Source: a virus
Taxonomy: Duplodnaviria; Caudoviricetes
Direction: 5' to 3' (one strand)
Length of the DNA: 64,000 bases
Virus record (IMG/VR): IMGVR_UViG_3300043812_000016
Span: 64,001 to 128,000 of that record
Shown here: positions 1,259-32,973 of the stretch, piece by piece
Numbering within the stretch: position 1 is the stretch's first letter
Layout of the letters: every line of letters starts with the position of its first letter
The notes under the pieces: model-generated
What the model saw: the letters and a program-made list of their open reading frames with translations, nothing else
Database searches by the model: none
Told to the model about the DNA's origin: nothing
Position numbers and translations under genes: made by a program

Positions 1259-1276
1259 CTTATAAAATAATTTATG

Positions 1277-1314
1277 TAAGAGTAAGATTAATTTCTTACT
1301 CTTATTTTTTTTTT
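1277..1314 (+). terminator. Rho-independent terminator after the capsid gene
   Basis: TAAGAGTAAGA-ttaatt-TCTTACTCTTA perfect 11-bp stem followed by T10. Confidence 0.9.
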
Positions 1315-1385
1315 AGTTTTTTATAATTTTGTCATGACTACTTCTACTAATTGTGCTATAATCATAAATGAAGGAGTTGATATTA

Positions 1386-2504
1386 ATGACTAGAAGAAAA
1401 ACTAATGAAGAATTTGTTAAACAGGTTAAAGAATTAGTAGGTGATGATTATACTTTTCTTGAACCTTATAAGAACAATAGAACTAAGTTATTAGTACGTC
1501 ATAATGTTTGTGGTAATGTGTATAGAGTTGTTCCTGATAGCTTTTTAAAGGGTCGTAGATGTCCTAAGTGTCGTAGGAAAGAAGTAACAAATAAGAGGCG
1601 TATGTCTAATGATGAGTTTATAAAACGTGTTAATGATTTAGTTGGTGATGAATACTCTGTATTAGAACCTTATGTTAATTCTCAAACACCTATTTTGATT
1701 AAACATAATGTTTGTGGTCATGTATTACAAATGAAACCAAACTCCTTTTTAAATGGTAGTCGTTGTAAATATTGTGCACATAATGTAAGATTAACTACGG
1801 ACGAGTTTAAAGATAGGATTAGTGGAATATATGGAAATGACTATACTGTTTTAGGCGATTATGTTAATTCCCATACGCCTATATTAGTTAGACACAACAT
1901 TTGTCACCATACTTATACAGTTAGACCTATGAATATAATGAGAGGTCAGAGATGTCCTTATTGCTTTAAGACTCCTAAAAAGACTACTAAGGAATTTCAA
2001 ATAGAATTGAATGAAATATATGGAAGAGGAGTTTATACAGTAGTCAGTCCTTATCGTGGGGCAAAAAAGAAAATAATGCTCAAACATAAGTGTGGCTATG
2101 TTTGGGGAACAAAGCCTAATTGGATGCTATCAAAAAGAGGTGGTTGTCCTATGTGCAATACCCCGCATGGAGAACTTATAATTAATAATATTTTAAAAGA
2201 CAGTGCTATATCTTATGAGCATCCTAAGAAGTTTAGTGACTTATTAGGCGTTGGCGGTTTTCCTTTGCATTATGACTTTTATATAGACGATCAGAGGGTA
2301 TTAATTGAATATCAAGGATTACAACACTATGAGCCTATTGATCATTTTGGTGGAAAAGAACAATTTAAGAAACAGCAGTATCATGATAAGTTAAAGCGCA
2401 AGTATGCAAAAGCTAACGGTTATAATTTAATTGAAATACCATATTCTTGTGATACTTACAATGATATAAAGAAGTGCTTAATTGAAGGTGGTTTAAAACT
2501 ATGA
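1386..2504 (+). CDS. Free-standing putative homing endonuclease: 4 Zn-ribbon repeats plus C-terminal Vsr/DUF559-like PD-(D/E)XK nuclease
   Basis: Four repeats of about 60-70 aa (EF..YxxL..Y....(I/L).vrHxxCG...CPxC). C-terminus LHYDFYI...IEYQGLQHY...HDKLKRKYA...LIEIPY. RBS AAGGAG favours the start at 1386. TG-TATAAT promoter just upstream. Confidence 0.8.
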   Translation: MTRRKTNEEFVKQVKELVGDDYTFLEPYKNNRTKLLVRHNVCGNVYRVVPDSFLKGRRCPKCRRKEVTNKRRMSNDEFIKRVNDLVGDEYSVLEPYVNSQTPILIKHNVCGHVLQMKPNSFLNGSRCKYCAHNVRLTTDEFKDRISGIYGNDYTVLGDYVNSHTPILVRHNICHHTYTVRPMNIMRGQRCPYCFKTPKKTTKEFQIELNEIYGRGVYTVVSPYRGAKKKIMLKHKCGYVWGTKPNWMLSKRGGCPMCNTPHGELIINNILKDSAISYEHPKKFSDLLGVGGFPLHYDFYIDDQRVLIEYQGLQHYEPIDHFGGKEQFKKQQYHDKLKRKYAKANGYNLIEIPYSCDTYNDIKKCLIEGGLKL

Positions 2505-3718
2505 CAAAAATAGACCAAGAACAGATTGGATTTAAGAAAGTTAATTCCCTAGACTTACATGGATTAATGGTTGACTATCATTATTTACACCGAGTAGTAG
2601 CTTGTAAGTATGCTTATGGAATGTACTACCAAAATCAATTAGTAGGAATGGTTACCTATACTCATGTACGTAAGTCTTTAGCTTCTTCAATCTCGCCTTT
2701 AGCTAATAAAGATAATACTTTAGAATTATCTCGATTATACATAAAAGACGAAGTAAGCCAAAACTTAAAGAATATTACTTCTAAGTTTGTTTCATGGACT
2801 TTAAGACAATTAAAGCAAGAACAAGATGGTAATTGGTTTATTATCTCCTTTGCTGATCAAGGTATGCACCATACAGGAGCAATTTACCAAGCTACTAACT
2901 TCTTATACTGTGGAACAACAGATTCTGGTATCTTTTGTTATAATGGACCAGATAAGAAAGGTGGTAAATGGGTTAAAGGACATCACTACCGTTTCTTTAT
3001 CCTACGTTCAATTAAGTATCGTTACATTATGTTCTTAGGTTCTAAGACGTTTAAGAAACAAGCCCGTAAGACCCTTAAATTTGAGATTGAACCTTATCCT
3101 AAACAAGATAGCATTCACTACTCAGTAGGTGATACAGAAGAACGTTTAATCCGTGATCGTCAAGAAAATAAGGTTTATACAGAAACTGAATTACTTAAAG
3201 CTTTTCCTAACTATGATTGGAATGGAGATAATGGAGAAGTAGTTAAACCTATTAAGCCTAAGGTTGTTAAAAAGGTTAATCAACACTTTGCCCCAGTCTA
3301 TGCTATCAGCACTAAAACTAATCAAGTCTTTCAGTTTGAGTCTATTCGCTCCTGTGCAGAAACTCTAAATGTAGGTGAACGTAATATTAAGCACTGCTTA
3401 GCTGATAAGAAAGGTTCTCTTGGTGGTTTTGTCTTTTGCAGACCAGATGATTACACCTCAGAGCTTGCTAAGGAATTAGTAGAAAACGCTAAGAAGAGTC
3501 CTAAGTATAATCATGATTTCATCGTTGATGGTAACTGGGTAGAGGGAATGACTAAAGTTCGAGAGATTGTAGGAGCTAGTCGTTCTTCTATTCATAGGGC
3601 AATTGATGTTAACCGTAGAGAGGTTAAAGGACACACAATTGATATTCCTAAGCCTAAGGATATTGTTAATCATTATAAGTCTGTTTATCAACCTTTAGTT
3701 ACATATTTAATTAGTTAA
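2501..3718 (+). CDS. Mom-like (GNAT-fold) DNA modification protein with C-terminal NUMOD1-like HTH domains
   Basis: YHYLHR, LELSRL and IISFADQGMHHTGAIYQATNFLYCG match the Mu Mom family pattern. C-terminal FESIRSCAETLNVGERNIKHCL resembles a NUMOD1 HTH. ATGA overlap with the upstream nuclease and its own RBS (GAAGGTGG). Confidence 0.78.
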   Translation: MTKIDQEQIGFKKVNSLDLHGLMVDYHYLHRVVACKYAYGMYYQNQLVGMVTYTHVRKSLASSISPLANKDNTLELSRLYIKDEVSQNLKNITSKFVSWTLRQLKQEQDGNWFIISFADQGMHHTGAIYQATNFLYCGTTDSGIFCYNGPDKKGGKWVKGHHYRFFILRSIKYRYIMFLGSKTFKKQARKTLKFEIEPYPKQDSIHYSVGDTEERLIRDRQENKVYTETELLKAFPNYDWNGDNGEVVKPIKPKVVKKVNQHFAPVYAISTKTNQVFQFESIRSCAETLNVGERNIKHCLADKKGSLGGFVFCRPDDYTSELAKELVENAKKSPKYNHDFIVDGNWVEGMTKVREIVGASRSSIHRAIDVNRREVKGHTIDIPKPKDIVNHYKSVYQPLVTYLIS

Positions 3719-3725
3719 AATAGAT

Positions 3726-3747
3726 GACTGTTAATTCAGTCTTTTTT
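3726..3747 (+). terminator. Rho-independent terminator
   Basis: GACTG-ttaatt-CAGTC followed by T6. Confidence 0.6.
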
Positions 3748-3760
3748 ATTTAATCTTTTT

Positions 3761-3802
3761 GTATAAAAGTAGTTGAAAATTCAACTAAAAGTGTTATACT
3801 TA
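3761..3802 (+). promoter_or_regulatory. SigA-type promoter with a palindromic operator over the -35 (copy 1)
   Basis: TTGAAA-16 nt-TATACT with an extended TG. Palindrome TAGTTGAA-aa-TTCAACTA at 3770-3787. Near-identical copy at about 23007. Confidence 0.75.
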
Positions 3803-12108: not shown

Positions 12109-12649
12109 AAAAGATATAAAAGAACACCCAGATTGGAATATTAACCTATCTCCTGCTTTAAATCGTCTTGGTGGTATTCAAACTTTAGTTCGTTCTACCT
12201 CTGGTCGTAATATGTGGGCTATTATGAAGTTTTTTAAAGTGCTTCCTAATGATCCATTATTAAAGTCACTTACTTTTGCTCAACGGGAGTTTATTATTGC
12301 GTCTATGAATGAGGACGTAAAAGAGGCGGAGCGCCAAGCTAAAGGTGAGAAAGAAGTTTCTCATGTTGAAGATAAGAGCTTTGAAAAGAAGTTCTACTCT
12401 AACGAAAATGTTGAGCTTCTCGAACAGGGAGATAACTTAGACGATATTTATAAGCAGACACTTAAGCTTAAGGCTAAAGAGGACGCTCGACAGGGTGTTA
12501 GCGAGAACTATGATGAGGTTCTTGACTTTAAGATTAAGCAGGCTATTGAAGAACACGAATTGAAGCAACGGAATGCAGAAGCACAAGTTGACGAAAACTG
12601 GAAGAAATTAATTGAAAAGTCTAATAATTATGAATTTGATGATGAGTAG
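12083..12649 (+). CDS. Tail chaperone C-terminal extension, likely reached by a +1 frameshift at TTT.TTT.C
   Basis: The +1 frame is open from the T-run at 12082-12087 through GGIQTLVRSTSGRNMWAIMKFFKVLP, with no good RBS before ATG 12212. Confidence 0.65.
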   Translation, partial: FFCKTSSSRKDIKEHPDWNINLSPALNRLGGIQTLVRSTSGRNMWAIMKFFKVLPNDPLLKSLTFAQREFIIASMNEDVKEAERQAKGEKEVSHVEDKSFEKKFYSNENVELLEQGDNLDDIYKQTLKLKAKEDARQGVSENYDEVLDFKIKQAIEEHELKQRNAEAQVDENWKKLIEKSNNYEFDDE

Positions 12650-12657
12650 GTGAAGTA

Positions 12658-15600
12658 ATGTCAGTGTCACGATATACAGTAAAACTTGATATTGGCGATG
12701 GTCGTTTTAAATCTCTTGCTAGTCAGTTAAACAGATTAAATAAAGAAATTGATCGGGTCTATCAACGAGGTCAAGATAATAACAATACTGTAAGTGACAA
12801 AGACTTAACTAACTTACAAAGTCATTTATCTGGTCTTGTACAGGCAATTGATGATAAAAAGCAACGGACTAATGAACAATTAGATCAAGCAAGGATTGTT
12901 AATGATACAGACCAGATTGCTAAATTTTTAGACGAATTAAAAGAGTTGACAGACGCTGGTAAGGAGTCTAATCAACTCTTTTCTTCTTATAAATTTAATC
13001 AAGTAAACAATTATCGAGTTAATTCTTCAAGAGCATTTAGAACTAATGACTTCGATAAACTTAATTCTGATTTTCAACATGATTTAACTGATTTAAAAGA
13101 TAATATTGGTAAGTTAAGTAATCGTAGTAAGATTTTAGAAAGACGTTGGGATCGTGGCGTTTTTAATGGTGCGGTTACTTATGAACGGTGGCAAAAGTAT
13201 CAAGACCAAAATCAAACCCAAGCCAACGAGTATGATAATTATAATAATCAATATCAAGAATTAAAAAAGCAGTATGAAGACCAGTTACAACAATTAACTA
13301 AGGAACGAAATGTTTTAAATAATCAGATTGAGTCTGGTAAAGGTAGTCAAGATGATATTACTAAACGATCTGCATTAGACGAACAGATCATAAAAATGCG
13401 AAAGGTAGATCAGACTTTAAGTGATTTAGCTAATACACTCAACAATACTGGAAGTCGGATTAATCTCTCTAATGCTAAGCTACATGATAAACAGACTGTA
13501 GATACTGTTGTTTTACCCGCTAAGGATTCACTAGAAGGTTTTCTTAGTACTCATAAGCGAATTCTTACTCGCTCTGCTATTGTAGGTGCAGTTGGTAATA
13601 CTATACGTGCTTATAATACAGGAAATAGTCTTATTTTAAATAATTTTGATAATATTAAGTCAACTGTTTATGCTTCTGGTTTAGGAGAAAATAAGGTAGA
13701 AAATACTTTAGCAGACGCTGGATTTAGTATGGGCTATGGTTTAGATGAGATGAGTAATTATCTTAATAATTATACGTCCGCTACTGGTAATGCTAATTTA
13801 AGTCGAAATCAAATTAAAGACGTAACAAGGTCTTGGGCTGGATTGTCTCGATATTCTGGTGCTAATGATTCTACCACTCAAAACTTGGAATACGTAAGTG
13901 CTATGACCTCATTAGCTGGTACTAAAGAATTTAGTAGCTTAGCGAATGCAATTCAAAATGAGATTACTAATTCTGGTATGAATGCAAAGGCTAATGAGCA
14001 ACAACAAGCCCTAGCTAATATGTATCAAACAGCTTTTAATGTTTCTGGTAGTACTTTATCAACTAGAGATCAAAAAGAAATTGCTGGTTTTCAAGGGGTT
14101 ATGGCTCAAACCGGTAAGTCTGAATTACAAGGACAACAGGGGGCGCAAGCCTATGCTGGTTTAGTCTCAGCCTTTCAGCCTAGTAACATAGCCTCTCTTA
14201 GGTTATTTACTGGCAATGATCCAGCTTATCAAACAAGAGAAGGTCATGCTCAAGCTATTTTTGATATGCAGGACGCTTCTAAACATCCATACAAATATAA
14301 GACTGCTATTGATAACCTTTTAAGAAATGCTAAGACACAAGCTCGTACTAAAAACGGTGATGTTACAATTGCTTCTGCTAATCTTTATAAATTATCAAAA
14401 GAGAGCGGTGGTAATCTTTCACCTCAACAAGCTAAAGACTTAGTAGAGCTTTATAAGCATAAGAAGTTTACTAAGAAGAATGTTGATAAGATTGTTAAGG
14501 GTAGTGGCAAAGGAAATAAAGATAAATATGATAAAACTGGTGCTAAGACCATTCAGCAACAGCAAAAGGCTATTCAAGAAAGTGAAGTTAAAGCTTCCCA
14601 TGCTTTAAATCATTTCACCCATAAGCTTAATTGGATAAATAAGACTTTTTGGATTAGTAATATTATGTCTGGAGTAGGAACGTCTATAGGTGTTTCTATG
14701 TTAGGTGATCTAGGAGTAGGTCTTATTTATGGAGGTTATGCTAAGAGTGGTTATCAAAAGATAGCAGGTAGTCTTAAGAATCGAGGACTTAAAGGTACTT
14801 TATCTGCTATTAAAGGTAAGGGTAGTAGCCTAAAAGATTCCTTAATTTCGATTATAAGCAACGCTAAGAGCGATAAGTCTAGTTCCAGTGTATCTGGTAC
14901 TAAAATGATTAAAAGAGCTAAATCGGGGCTTAAAATTAATCCTACGACACTTGTAAAATCTGGATCTAAAGTTCCTGCTAGAAAGATAGGTAAAGCCGGT
15001 GCTTTAATTGGTGTTGGTATGGGTGCTTATGCTTTATATGATAGTTATAAGAATGATAATAAAGCTCATGCTTCTACAGTTAACCCTAAAGAAGATAATT
15101 CTCGTTCTAAGAATAAGAAACAGTCTAATAAGAAAGCTTCTAGTATGACTGTTAGTAAGTTAGCTAAGCAGGTTCAGAACAAATATAAGCGACTTCATAA
15201 GTCAGAGTGGCGTTTAATTGATTATCTTAATACTTATTGGGATATTTTCTTGCGTAAAGCTAAAGAATCTGGTAGTAGCTCTAGCTCTAGTGATGATGTT
15301 GGTAGTGACTCAGGAGGAGATTCTGCTAAGTCCCCAGAAGAGTGGAAGGATGATATTAAAAAAGCCGCCAAAGCTATGGGACAGAATGTATCAGACGAAC
15401 AAGTCAATATGATTGTTTCCATGATTAAGGCTGAGTCTGGAGGAGATCCTACTGTTACTCAGCAGATTAGTGATATTAATTCGGCTAATGGTCATCCAGC
15501 TCAAGGTCTTTTACAATACGTCCCTTCAACTTTTGAACATTATGCAGTTAAGGGTCATACAAATATTAAATCTGGTTATGATCAATTACTTGCTCTATTT

Positions 15601-30273: not shown

Positions 30274-30955
30274 TTGGCAACTGTAGCAGGACAAACGGTA
30301 AACACGGGTAACCGAATTTATATTATGTGTAAGAACCATTTAATTGCACGTGCTCAAAGTTTGACAGCTAATAGAAGTTACGGTACCGAAGGGGTATACG
30401 AAATCGGATCCATTAACTAGCATAGTGGTGGTTAACAGTAATGTTAATTGAAAAATTCTACTAAACGGGTAAAGCTGAATAACTGAATTGAATAGGCTAG
30501 TAAGAAAGGCTACGTCCAGAGGTGGATAGAGCTAACCAACCGTTCTAAAACAAAAGACTAACGATTAAGTCCTTATTAGATTAAGATAAGGTAATGTAGA
30601 ACCTCTTATAGAGAGGAAGATATAATCTAATCTTTTTAGAAATAAGTAGTTAATATAATGTATGCCAAGGGAACACGTATACCTCAAATATACGGGTTCT
30701 CTTACACTAGAAAGATTTCGTATGGTACGAGATAACCTTGCATCTAAACAAATGGATATAGCCCATCTGGGAGAAGACATCTTGCAAGCTGACGTTTTAA
30801 CCATTTCTGTAATGGATAGCGTTACTAAAATGGTAGTCGAAGCGTTTTACGGATGCAGTGCTTCCACCTACAACACCAGTTATAGAGCCAATCAAATCGT
30901 ATCTGAATCTATTGAGTTTCTTTACCTCAGCTCTTCGACTGGCTCACAGTCATAA
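30274..30955 (+). CDS. Tail tube protein, intron-split: join(30274..30413,30661..30955), 144 aa
   Basis: Exon 1 MATVAGQTVNTGNRIYIMCKNHLIARAQSLTANRSYGTEGVYEIGS(I) plus exon 2 MPREHVYLKYTG... rebuilds the K/Twort tube motif QTVxTGN...GVYEIGSIMPxEHVYL. TTG start with RBS AAAGGAG. Confidence 0.93.
30414..30660 (+). mobile_element. ORF-less group I self-splicing intron (247 nt) in the tail tube gene
   Basis: 5' exon ends in U and the intron ends in G. P1 CCAU|UA/UAGUGG with a U-G pair at the splice site. P10 GCAUA pairs with exon 2 UAUGC. P2 has a GUAA loop. P3 UUCUAC/GUAGAA, P4 AACGG/CCGUU, R-like AGACUA, P8 CCUCU/AGAGG, S-like AAGAUAUAAUCU. Confidence 0.93.
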
Positions 30956-31125: not shown

Positions 31126-32973
31126 TTGAAAAAATTAACTTTTGAAGAATTTAATTATAGGGCACAGCGTATGCTAGGATCTAGTTATGTTTTTTACCCT
31201 CCATATAAGGATATGAAAACGCCTATTAAATATAAGCATTTAGTGTGTGGGACTACTGGAACTTTAATTCCTGATAATATTTTTAGAGGTAAAGCTAAAT
31301 GTAAGTATTGTAGTATGAGGAGGAGATCTGGTAGACGTATGATAACAGACGATGAGTTTAGGAAGAGGCTACATAAAGTTCGCCCTAGCGATGATATTAT
31401 TTTACTTGAGCCTATACATGGTATTTTTAAGAAAACCAAGGCAAAATGTCTCGTGTGTGGGTATGGTTCAAAAGGTGAATGGACTCCTCTTCCAGTTAAC
31501 TTATTAAAGGGTAAAGGGTGTCCTAATTGTGCAGGTAATGCTCCTAAAACACCAGATAGTGTAATTAAAGAAGTTAGAGATTTAGGGAATGGTGAGTATG
31601 AATTATTAGGAACTAAGAGAACTAAAAAAGATGGTTTATGGTTACATTTACTCCATAAAGAGTGCGAAAATGATTATTGGGTTCGTGACTATAGTTTCAT
31701 ACATGGTTATCGTTGTAAATTTTGTGCTAACAAAGCAACAGGCGACAGATGTAGGCTATCCTTAGACGAAGTTAAGCAACGAATTACAAGGGTTGCTGAT
31801 GGTCGTTATACATATGTAAGTGGTAATTATAAGAACAACCAAAGCCCTATCTATGTAAGGCACAACGTATGTGGTACTGTGTTTAAAACCACATGGGGGC
31901 AACTTAGTGCTAATAAGGGCTTGTGTCCTAATTGTGGGTCTTCTAATGGTGAACAGGCGATTATGAACTATTTAGTATCACACAGGGTTAGTTACTCTTA
32001 TGGCTACTTAATTCCAGACTTAATAGATAAGAAAAATCTTCACTTTGACTTCTGGTTGCCTCAAGTCAATACTGCTATAGAATATGATGGTCAACAGCAT
32101 TTTAAGCCTGTCGATTTGTTTGGAGGTAAAGAGCGCTATGAATTACAGAAGAAACACGATAGGATGAAAGATGATTACTGTAAGAAAAAAGGTATTAATT
32201 TAATTAGGATTAAGTATAATGAAAATATTAAAGATACTTTAAATTGTTATCTTTTACCTCTAGTAGATAAGCTTAGTGATGTTGATTTTAGAAAGGTAGA
32301 AAGTACAGAGCTTAATGAGTTAATGATTAAGTATCATTATTTACACCGTAAAGTGACTACTTCTTATTGTTATGGTTTATATTATCGAGGAAGTCTGGCA
32401 GGAATGGTAACATATACGAGACCTAGAATTAGCCTTGCTCAGTCAATCTCGCCTTTAGCTAATAAAGATAACACCCTAGAATTATCCCGATTATACATAA
32501 AAGACGAAGTAAGCCAAAACTTAAAGAATATTACTTCTAAGTTTGTCTCATGGACTTTAAGACAATTAAAGCAAGAGCAAGATGGCAACTGGTTTATTAT
32601 CTCTTTTGCCGATCAAGGTATGCACCATACGGGAGCAATCTATCAAGCTACTAATTTCTTATACTGTGGGACTACTAAACATCGTGAATACTCTTGGAAT
32701 GGATATGGTAAGCATGGCGGTGTATGGGAAAAAGGTCATTACTATAGGTATATGATAATTAGTCCTATCAAATATCGTTACATTATGTTCTTAGGATCAA
32801 AGACTTTTAAGAAACAAGCCCGTAAGACCCTTAAATTTGATATTGAACCTTATCCTAAACAAGATAGCGTTCACTATTCTGTAGGTGATACAGAGGAAAG
32901 ACTAATTCGAGACCGAGAAACTGGTAAGATTTGGAAAGAGTCTGAGTTAGTTAAACATCTAAAGAAAGATTAA
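31126..32973 (+). CDS. Fusion protein: Zn-ribbon repeats, Vsr/DUF559-like endonuclease and Mom-like GNAT domain
   Basis: Four Cys/His repeats, then LHFDFWLP...IEYDGQQHF...HDRMKDDYC, then YHYLHR...LELSRL...FADQGMHHTGAIYQATNFLYCG in one frame. Promoter TTGAAT...TATAAT and RBS AAGGA upstream. Confidence 0.85.
   Translation: MKKLTFEEFNYRAQRMLGSSYVFYPPYKDMKTPIKYKHLVCGTTGTLIPDNIFRGKAKCKYCSMRRRSGRRMITDDEFRKRLHKVRPSDDIILLEPIHGIFKKTKAKCLVCGYGSKGEWTPLPVNLLKGKGCPNCAGNAPKTPDSVIKEVRDLGNGEYELLGTKRTKKDGLWLHLLHKECENDYWVRDYSFIHGYRCKFCANKATGDRCRLSLDEVKQRITRVADGRYTYVSGNYKNNQSPIYVRHNVCGTVFKTTWGQLSANKGLCPNCGSSNGEQAIMNYLVSHRVSYSYGYLIPDLIDKKNLHFDFWLPQVNTAIEYDGQQHFKPVDLFGGKERYELQKKHDRMKDDYCKKKGINLIRIKYNENIKDTLNCYLLPLVDKLSDVDFRKVESTELNELMIKYHYLHRKVTTSYCYGLYYRGSLAGMVTYTRPRISLAQSISPLANKDNTLELSRLYIKDEVSQNLKNITSKFVSWTLRQLKQEQDGNWFIISFADQGMHHTGAIYQATNFLYCGTTKHREYSWNGYGKHGGVWEKGHYYRYMIISPIKYRYIMFLGSKTFKKQARKTLKFDIEPYPKQDSVHYSVGDTEERLIRDRETGKIWKESELVKHLKKD
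32443..32916 (+). repeat. Dispersed repeat: Mom-like core shared with 2687-3160
   Basis: 32443-32676 and 2687-2920 encode 78 identical aa with only synonymous differences. 32767-32916 and 3011-3160 encode 48 of 50 identical aa. Confidence 0.92.

Follow-up and report, generated by a model that had tools for sequence, protein, structure and literature searches.

We have analysed a stretch of 64,000 nucleotides (the window), which covers bases 64001-128000 of a virus record of 143,482 bp that is rated complete (IMG/VR record IMGVR_UViG_3300043812_000016; Duplodnaviria; Caudoviricetes), and we describe in it a two-gene cassette in which a homing-type endonuclease is joined to a Mom-family DNA modifier. 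The open reading frame (ORF) preceding the cassette, at 2-1258, encodes the major head protein (phrog_752, E 1.6e-123), and its closest cultured relative is the head protein of Limosilactobacillus fermentum phage LfeInf (Herelleviridae; about 65-66% identity). The carrier is a Herelleviridae-like phage of roughly 143 kb with a Lactobacillus-type host, and not a jumbo phage. Among public runs, carriers of the cassette were found in bioreactor-sludge metagenomes, with smaller shares in manure and animal-gut metagenome runs; no RNA run was among those listed. From the capsid stop codon onwards, a terminator-like hairpin, a promoter-like site, the nuclease gene, the Mom-like gene and a second terminator-like hairpin follow one another (Table 1). 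The stop codon of the nuclease gene and the start codon of the Mom gene overlap in ATGA at 2501-2504.

Table 1. Features of the nuclease-Mom cassette and its paralogues, in window coordinates (aa, amino acids).
Feature	Position	Strand	Basis or remark
Terminator-like hairpin and T-run, just 3' of the capsid stop	1276..1305	+	Consensus match only; identical sequence in L005 and L006
Promoter-like site: ATGACT, 17-nt spacer, TG-extended TATAAT	1334..1362	+	10/12 matches; kept in L005 and L006
EDxHD/Vsr-like free-standing homing endonuclease, 378 aa	1368..2504	+	phrog_559 (E 1e-106), fold, invariant residues
Four tandem modules of ~65 aa (helix + zinc ribbon; CapR/DUF723/DUF4379 type)	1392..2156	+	Pfam CapR and DUF4379; CxxC pattern
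Vsr-like nuclease catalytic domain, aa 264-378	2157..2501	+	VIA-align and invariant columns
Heptamer T_TTA_AAA in the nuclease frame, two codons 5' of the stop	2492..2498	+	Sequence reading
Mom-family adenine modifier with DNA-binding tail of a decayed I-HmuI-type HNH endonuclease, 405 aa (predicted)	2501..3718	+	
Mom (GNAT) domain, aa 1-235	2501..3205	+	PF25680; Mu Mom alignment
Deletion scar; allelic forms (P0009, L006, L017-19) hold the NUMOD4 + HNH_3 module here, 97 aa more	3234..3298	+	
I-HmuI NUMOD-like motif (aa 267-312) and remaining C-terminal tail	3299..3715	+	PF22083, phrogs, homology
Terminator-like hairpin 3' of the Mom gene	3726..3741	+	Consensus match only
Nuclease paralogue without Mom, 388 aa	28997..30163	+	
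Single-chain nuclease-Mom fusion paralogue, 615 aa, 3' of the interrupted tail-tube gene	31126..32973	+	Both parts present
Zinc-ribbon repeats only, no nuclease domain, 222 aa	33041..33709	+	

An earlier note, made from the sequence of the window, had described this pair as translationally coupled and lying directly after the capsid gene, and both points hold. The two ORFs are as it described them, but the nuclease gene starts at 1368, and the start that the note gave, 1386, is an alternative one at the in-frame Met7. The note had also credited the pair with its own promoter and terminator. Sites of both kinds do lie in these places, but promoter-like matches are not enriched in the region (12 sites, against 14.6 expected in shuffled sequence). 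Because the consensus matches are no commoner than in shuffled sequence, we regard the promoter-like and terminator-like sites as positional hints only. As far as these signals suggest, the two genes would be co-transcribed. A scan of the whole window with Rfam at gathering thresholds gave no match. The cassette DNA had no near-identical counterpart among GenBank phages, a collection from which the record itself may be missing.

The first gene encodes a homing endonuclease of the EDxHD/Vsr-like class (I-Bth0305I, Hef), for which cutting and homing are predicted. Its family is widespread in Firmicutes phages, where the members are annotated as homing, intron-encoded or 'Hef-like' endonucleases. 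On the one hand, the N-terminal part consists of tandem modules, each of which is closed by a CxxC motif (at residues 65, 133, 196 and 260), and this zinc-ribbon array is presumed to be a DNA-recognition array. In the AlphaFold model of the protein (mean predicted local distance difference test, pLDDT, 90.8), the helix/strand pattern repeats at a pLDDT of about 90. On the other hand, the C-terminal domain shows the Vsr fold. The nuclease sequence found nothing significant in the PDB and the whole model gave a weak match with Foldseek (3r3p at E 0.015), the fold being resolved by VIA-align alone. With that program, residues 264-378 matched Vsr (1cw0_A; Z 10.3, root-mean-square deviation 2.6 over 103 residues) and the catalytic domain of I-Bth0305I (3r3p_B; Z 10.3, root-mean-square deviation 2.9 over 94 residues, 21% identity), while the next unrelated rows stood at Z of about 7-8. 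The zinc-ribbon repeats and the Vsr-like fold that the earlier note had read from the letters are therefore both recovered, by the CapR and DUF4379 matches with four CxxC motifs and by the structural comparison.

Six residues, E269, D303, E314, H320, D340 and K343, are invariant across 27 homologues of the nuclease. Four of them (E269, D303, H320 and D340) follow the E-D-x-H-D order and, by this order, are candidate active-site residues, which in Vsr include D51, H69 and D97. The invariant residues fit the composite EDxHD signature of the family that includes the phage Hef enzymes (PMC3239194). As in I-Bth0305I and the Hef enzymes (Taylor et al. 2011, PMC3239194), a C-terminal Vsr-like domain follows a modular N-terminal DNA-binding region, and members of both groups are carried by phages, either free-standing or within introns, and occur in many copies. 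Unlike them, the window nuclease has tandem zinc-ribbon modules instead of NUMOD2/HTH (helix-turn-helix) motifs, and a Mom partner is undescribed for the characterised members. The window nuclease has Q in place of D in the motif EY(D/Q)GxQH. We considered this exchange as a mark of inactivation and rejected it, since EYQG is a frequent natural variant, found in 13 of 35 motif-bearing homologues.

The second gene encodes a Mom-family GNAT protein, in agreement with the earlier note. The Pfam family PF25680 was matched with 103.9 bits by the split gene and with 106.9 bits by the fused paralogue in the same window (cut-off 27.1), and phrog_1384 with an E of 1e-39. The best sequence match of the split-gene Mom is the crystal chain of Mu Mom (8bv8, E 1e-10). 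The fold match rests on the model of the fused paralogue, whose Mom domain shares 77% identity with that of the split gene; the top PDB match of this model is 8bv8_B (Mu Mom; E 1.5e-10, template modelling score 0.73 by target). The chemistry of Mu Mom has been solved recently: charged tRNA is the source of the glycine (Silva et al. 2026, PMC13219725). AlphaFold3 modelling of Mu Mom suggests that the substrate adenine is flipped from the helix, and R111, S124 and R151 are essential (PMC13219725). We mapped the window protein onto this numbering in an alignment of 62 domains, consisting of the clade described below and outgroups. Residues H27, Y28, R78, S94, D119 and Y129 correspond to H58, Y59, R111, S124, D149 and Y159 of Mu Mom. 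The equivalents of R111, S124 and Y159 are conserved in 62/62 domains, those of H58 and Y59 in all except the truncated P0049, and the D149 position has D in 59 rows and E in three from the outgroups.

Apart from R151, the second gene product, a GNAT of the Mom family, retains the conserved catalytic residues of Mu Mom, and adenine modification by it is predicted. The window protein and Mu Mom (8bv8) have the Pfam family, the fold, the six residue equivalents and the late-gene context in common. They differ in that the window Mom shows 21-22% identity to Mu Mom, has an HTH-like insertion about 12 aa shorter, carries G in place of R151, is joined to modules of homing endonucleases and has no com/Dam/OxyR-type controls nearby; its chemistry is a prediction, whereas that of Mu Mom has been solved.

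The C-terminal 170 aa of the Mom protein (residues 236-405), missed in the earlier note, are the remnant of an I-HmuI-type HNH homing endonuclease. In the alignment, P0009, P0022, P0028 and P0029 carry the full NUMOD4 - HNH_3 - NUMOD-like layout of I-HmuI (SPO1) at this position, C-terminal to the Mom domain. The window form differs from I-HmuI in that the NUMOD4 + HNH_3 catalytic module is absent from it, and the intact forms differ in having Mom at their N-terminus. The tail that is left scores 26.4 bits with PF22083, just below the cut-off of 27, matches phrog_3855 ('HTH DNA binding protein') and phrog_20162 ('HNH endonuclease'), is 91% identical to the matching segment of P0009 and is kept in 12 homologues. 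The tail is presumed to bind DNA. An intact allele of 502 aa occupies the same locus in L006 and L017-19. Our population evidence consists of assembled contigs from four metagenome runs (X1, X2, X5 and X7). In contigs of X2 and X7, position 3233 is joined to 3299 through 356 nt that replace 65 nt of the window, and alleles with and without the HNH module thus co-occur in the same sampled populations. Deletion of the HNH catalytic part is seen in several lineages (window/P0005, P0027, P0004, P0002 and P0024).

These deletions bear on a reading in which the HNH-type tail, or the zinc-ribbon array in the fusions, would steer Mom to one long site, giving immunity against the matching active endonucleases of competitors or setting a local epigenetic mark. 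The precise removal of the catalytic part, with the NUMOD-like tail retained under purifying selection, its repetition in several lineages and the presence of both alleles in the same samples are what such targeting would leave behind. On the other side, the nuclease within the chain of many fusions seems to be active, Mu Mom is an enzyme of broad specificity, and binding of a specific site by the present tail is an assumption. We consider site-directed modification unlikely. As a separate observation, stand-alone proteins of 147-152 aa adjoin the cassette in L009 (4748-5191), L017 (3428-3871), L021 (9450-9908) and L026 (5557-6000). Those of L009 and L021 show NUMOD1/NUMOD-like motifs only, and their equal-sized counterparts in L017 and L026 lack a recorded Pfam match; all of these proteins may be DNA-binding modules that came loose from decayed endonucleases.

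The neighbourhood survey called for by the earlier note showed that the pairing recurs in other genomes, both fused and split. We defined a Mom clade of domains 52-96% identical to that of the window, comprising 55 rows (protein clusters and locus copies). An N-terminal Vsr-type nuclease stands in the same chain in 38 of the 55 rows; nine rows are stand-alone Mom proteins, and others carry an HNH endonuclease or its tail at the C-terminus. The Mom tree requires at least 10 changes of architecture. The order in which nuclease and Mom follow directly on the capsid gene is found also in the diverged L021, L025 and L026, whose Mom proteins are 54-60% identical to that of the window over the whole protein and 57-69% over the Mom domain. 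At the same locus L008 has an in-frame fusion of 799 aa, while L005 and L006 are split, and the L008 junction is distinguished from that of the window by a small frame change near the common ACTATGA at the Mom start. Within the window, the fused form that the earlier note had reported at 31126-32973 was confirmed as one protein containing both parts.

Across the Mom family, an exhaustive profile-free scan found 1305 Mom clusters. Fusions of Mom to I-HmuI-type HNH endonucleases were seen in P0009, P0022, P0028, P0029 and P0065, and the longer representatives included fusions to GIY-YIG (P0180), EndoVII/HNH-like (P0109, P0125 and P0165), ParB_N (P0085) and DEDDh exonuclease (P0077) domains. We conclude that the link between nuclease and Mom goes beyond chance and is recurrent, old and general across the Mom family. 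In the GenBank collection of cultured phages, a search with tblastn and Pfam found no nuclease-Mom fusion, which is no proof of absence, such fusions being reported from jumbo phages by Iyer et al. (PMC7824862). One record was covered to at least 80% by tblastn (Bacillus phage Internexus) and partial overlaps occurred in Lactococcus AM1-type phages; none of these Internexus and AM1-type matches contains a Mom domain by Pfam.

The order of the fused domains varies (Vsr-Mom, Mom-HNH-NUMOD and, in P0065, HNH-NUMOD-Mom). A rule by which Mom would always abut the catalytic nuclease domain (DBD-Vsr-Mom, Mom-HNH-DBD, where DBD is the DNA-binding domain) was dropped on account of P0065. The same variation speaks to the idea that Mom takes part in cleavage or homing itself, either by flipping or acylating an adenine so that the nuclease can cut, or by tagging broken ends so as to bias repair. 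The presence of both activities in one polypeptide and the modelled adenine flipping by Mu Mom (PMC13219725) would suit such a role. Against it stand the unfixed domain order, the split forms that work as separate genes, the action of this nuclease family without Mom in most genomes and the lack of a precedent, and we regard a direct part of Mom in cleavage as quite improbable.

A second locus, downstream of the tail-tube gene (the tail-tube locus), bears on mobility. L016 carries only a stand-alone Mom there, and L013 adds a nuclease-Mom insertion of 2.2 kb just upstream of this resident gene; the flanks of the two loci share about 90% identity. L021 has three Mom-bearing genes within 8 kb. 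Considering this indel, the occurrence of up to three Mom-bearing genes per genome and the turnover of the nuclease described below, the nuclease-Mom unit behaves as mobile DNA. The earlier note had also called for a survey of empty sites. None was found at the capsid locus, where all six close relatives carry the cassette and the next relatives (LfeInf type, about 65-66% capsid identity) have a different gene order; the presence/absence polymorphism is the L013/L016 indel. Two genes 3' of the resident stand-alone Mom lies a Dam-type (MethyltransfD12) methylase gene (L013 4425-5261, L016 5957-6793), and the two together look like a small DNA-modification island.

We tentatively favour, at a little short of an even chance, the interpretation that the cassette is a composite selfish module of restriction-modification-like, homing type, built around Mom and using aminoacyl instead of methyl chemistry. 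A nuclease and a modifier are linked, as in restriction-modification systems, by the ATGA overlap in the window and by in-frame fusion in relatives. In the proposed sequence of events, Mom would act late in infection and transfer glycine from host Gly-tRNA(Gly) to the N6 of adenines in replicated phage DNA; the tRNA genes of the phage are tRNA-Met and tRNA-Arg only. The modification would be broad rather than matched to a site, and the modified carrier genome would be refractory to the linked nuclease, and probably also to the other nuclease paralogues that the genome encodes. Co-infecting relatives would have their unmodified DNA cut, and repair of the break from the carrier would spread the cassette with nearby markers (homing and marker exclusion). 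Nuclease modules would meanwhile be exchanged beside the conserved modifier. What the sequences show are the identities of the parts, their intactness, the recurrent link and its mobility; DNA modification, protection from the nuclease and cleavage of competitors are inferred.

Several observations weigh against this interpretation. Mom-NUMOD genes that are 90-98% identical are joined to at least four nuclease types, which are 39-68% identical to one another and have 2, 3 or 4 zinc ribbons, and in contigs the 3' ends of other nucleases meet the same Mom at position 2485, 16 nt ahead of its start. The nuclease does not covary with the modifier: the former is exchanged and the latter stays. The same nuclease family is common in phages without a Mom found beside it (AM1, Internexus and Streptococcus phages), and six of the eight intact nuclease paralogues of the present genome have no Mom in cis. 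Stand-alone Mom without a nuclease neighbour is usual in cultured Herelleviridae (phiSA_BS1, A511) and occurs also within this clade (L015, L016). Finally, the equivalent of the essential Mu R151 is G121 in the window and G or S throughout the clade, and this position is never Arg in the 62 Mom domains (G, S, A, Q or D), stand-alone members included; the mismatch may be a lineage difference or a local shift of the alignment. The earlier note had supposed that the modifier protects the cognate site of its nuclease. Because the same Mom stands with divergent nucleases, and because six of eight paralogues lack Mom, one-to-one cognate specificity is unlikely, and for the same reasons the protection by Mom, if it is real, must be broad and not tied to a matched long site; the loose sequence context of Mu Mom would permit this.

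In the runs with contigs over positions 1300-3800 of the window (X1, X2, X5 and X7), the assemblies were fragmented into pieces of at most a few hundred bases and showed numerous strain variants, and the summed contig depth was several-fold higher over the Mom core than over the nuclease. This excess is consistent with one conserved Mom common to many nuclease variants in the population.

In the main rival explanation, Mom is ordinary anti-host-restriction cargo, as in Mu, beside which homing endonucleases of several classes landed time and again and with which they fused, without biochemical cross-talk. Linkage to Mom would shield the nucleases from deletion, supply expression signals and ensure co-transfer, and, as with other homing endonucleases of the free-standing kind, the carrier would lack the nuclease's own sites or have them disrupted. 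Different homing endonuclease genes at one intergenic site are a classical pattern, and the turnover of the nuclease module beside a constant Mom, the lack of Mom beside most nuclease paralogues, the rule of stand-alone Mom in cultured Herelleviridae, and the tail-tube locus, where a nuclease-Mom unit in L013 lies just upstream of the Mom that stands alone in L016, all conform to it. So does the Dam-type methylase near the resident Mom of these two loci, which resembles an anti-restriction island, and so does the decay of the HNH catalytic part while Mom and the DNA-binding tail stay, as the life cycle of homing endonucleases predicts. However, chance fusions of neighbours would not be expected to arise repeatedly with four unrelated folds of nuclease in distant lineages of Mom, nor to persist in-frame from 96% down to 52% Mom identity, and several nuclease-tied Mom copies per genome exceed the needs of cargo. 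To our knowledge, other phage enzymes show no similar series of fusions with homing endonucleases, which also counts against hitch-hiking. We give this explanation a substantial minority chance. Should Mom be no more than cargo, the locus would remain a clear example of an anti-restriction gene spread by homing endonucleases.

Both genes are under purifying selection. Compared with the L005 and L006 orthologues, the ratio of nonsynonymous to synonymous substitution rates (dN/dS) is 0.11-0.15 for the nuclease and Mom genes alike. The two Mom copies of the window differ most in the N-terminal 60 aa and in the segment corresponding to the HTH-like, DNA-contacting insertion of Mu Mom, and they share a core of 80 aa that is 100% identical as protein and about 93% identical as DNA (dN/dS 0.09). 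Recent gene conversion was considered for this core and rejected: synonymous differences bring identity down to about 93% at the DNA level, and we ascribe the identical protein sequence to purifying selection. Both enzymes look catalytically intact as judged from their sequences. If one or both genes were decayed relics without current activity, the loss of the HNH part, the Q for D in the nuclease motif and the absence of the R151 equivalent could be counted as its signs. But the dN/dS values of 0.09-0.15 and the invariant catalytic residues contradict such decay, the Q variant is common among the homologues, and G or S at the R151 position is common to all clade members, stand-alone ones included. 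Accordingly, we consider decay very improbable.

The earlier note had known of no described system like this one, and here it must be corrected. In a one-paragraph, in-silico statement on jumbo phages, Iyer et al. 2021 (Viruses 13:63; PMC7824862) describe Mom domains fused to nucleases of the restriction endonuclease (REase) fold and predict that phage DNA is shielded by momylation while the nuclease targets host DNA or that of superinfecting phages; phage PA5oct is given there with five momylating enzymes. Because this Mom-REase logic had already been predicted in that statement, the restriction-modification-like concept is not new. The jumbo-phage proteins as described there and the present cassette have in common a Mom-family GNAT linked to a DNase of REase fold, several copies per genome and the same proposed logic. 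In contrast to that description, the carrier here is a Herelleviridae-like phage of ordinary size, and the nuclease is of homing type, with a zinc-ribbon array and an EDxHD/Vsr-like domain. On its other side, Mom is fused to endonucleases of a second class (I-HmuI-type HNH), one locus has the split form in some genomes and the fused form in others, and nucleases are swapped beside a constant Mom.

The fused forms also resemble restriction-modification enzymes of Type IIG / IIC in that nuclease, modifier and DNA-recognition modules are placed in one polypeptide. They differ from these in that the modifier is a tRNA-dependent GNAT and not an S-adenosylmethionine-dependent methyltransferase and that the recognition modules are of the homing endonuclease type, and the module swapping argues against a shared specificity of both activities. 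What is new, when set beside the jumbo-phage paragraph, is the homing type of the nucleases, the two endonuclease classes flanking one Mom, the split, fused and HNH-deleted alleles at one locus, the swapping of nucleases beside a conserved modifier, the occurrence in ordinary-sized Herelleviridae-like phages, and the GIY-YIG and EndoVII-like Mom fusions elsewhere in the family.

Homing endonucleases are considered to spare their own genome by a disrupted or diverged target, and restriction enzymes spare theirs by modification. A homing nuclease dependent on a DNA modifier linked to it would connect the two kinds of selfish nuclease, and it would explain how nucleases can target invariant essential genes. 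We can extend the favoured interpretation to the Mom family as a whole, in a possible generalisation to which we give appreciably less than an even chance: momylation would be a general 'epigenetic immunity' partner of homing endonucleases, with a broad, tRNA-dependent modifier marking the carrier as self. If this were true, nucleases drawn interchangeably from no fewer than three or four unrelated folds (EDxHD/Vsr-like, I-HmuI HNH, GIY-YIG, EndoVII-like) could cut conserved sequences of unmodified competitors without disruption of the target site, and such modules would form a missing link from homing endonucleases to restriction-modification systems, with non-methyl chemistry. The dozens of natural fused, split and swapped variants are ready constructs for testing the restriction-like prediction of 2021. 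The clade also serves the search for Mom enzymes that have new sequence contexts, as well as studies of competition between phages, here Lactobacillus-type phages of sludge, manure and gut.

The 143-kb genome contains eight intact zinc-ribbon/Vsr-like paralogues and one repeats-only copy, together about 6% of the genome. Along with the L013/L016 indel and the turnover of modules, the number of paralogues gives indirect evidence of homing. Those beyond the window lie at G000:C1 54417-61624 and 131033-132190, and four of the paralogues are clustered just upstream of the structural genes. The tail-tube gene that precedes the fused paralogue (window 30280-30955) is split into exons of ~48 and 97 aa by an element of ~250 nt (about 30417-30661), and it is uninterrupted in L016. 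The element gave a weak full-length match to the group I intron model (RF00028, 16.7 bits, E 0.084). Similar elements occur in L013 (522-754) and in several copies in L021 (1-1450 and 13301-13436), including the terminase region, and they may represent a very small group I-like intron that is spreading within these phages.

At the junction of the two cassette genes, a heptamer pattern, T_TTA_AAR, is present in the window and in six relatives with the 378-aa nuclease type, all of them closely related, L005 having T_TTA_AAG. We hypothesise that a -1 slip at this heptamer would read ACT ATG... into the Mom frame and yield a fused protein such as the relatives encode; no stable RNA structure is predicted downstream of it (z 0.48). 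Two further genes were noted in the relatives. L008 has, at 12431-14686, a gene for a 751-aa protein composed of a kinase (AAA_33), a metallophosphatase and a T4 Rnl1-type RNA ligase, and the window has none there; it looks like a tRNA-repair module, which is of note beside a tRNA-dependent DNA modifier. In L026, an IS605 OrfB/TnpB (Cas12f-like) gene at 1497-2663 lies between the scaffold/protease genes and the capsid gene.

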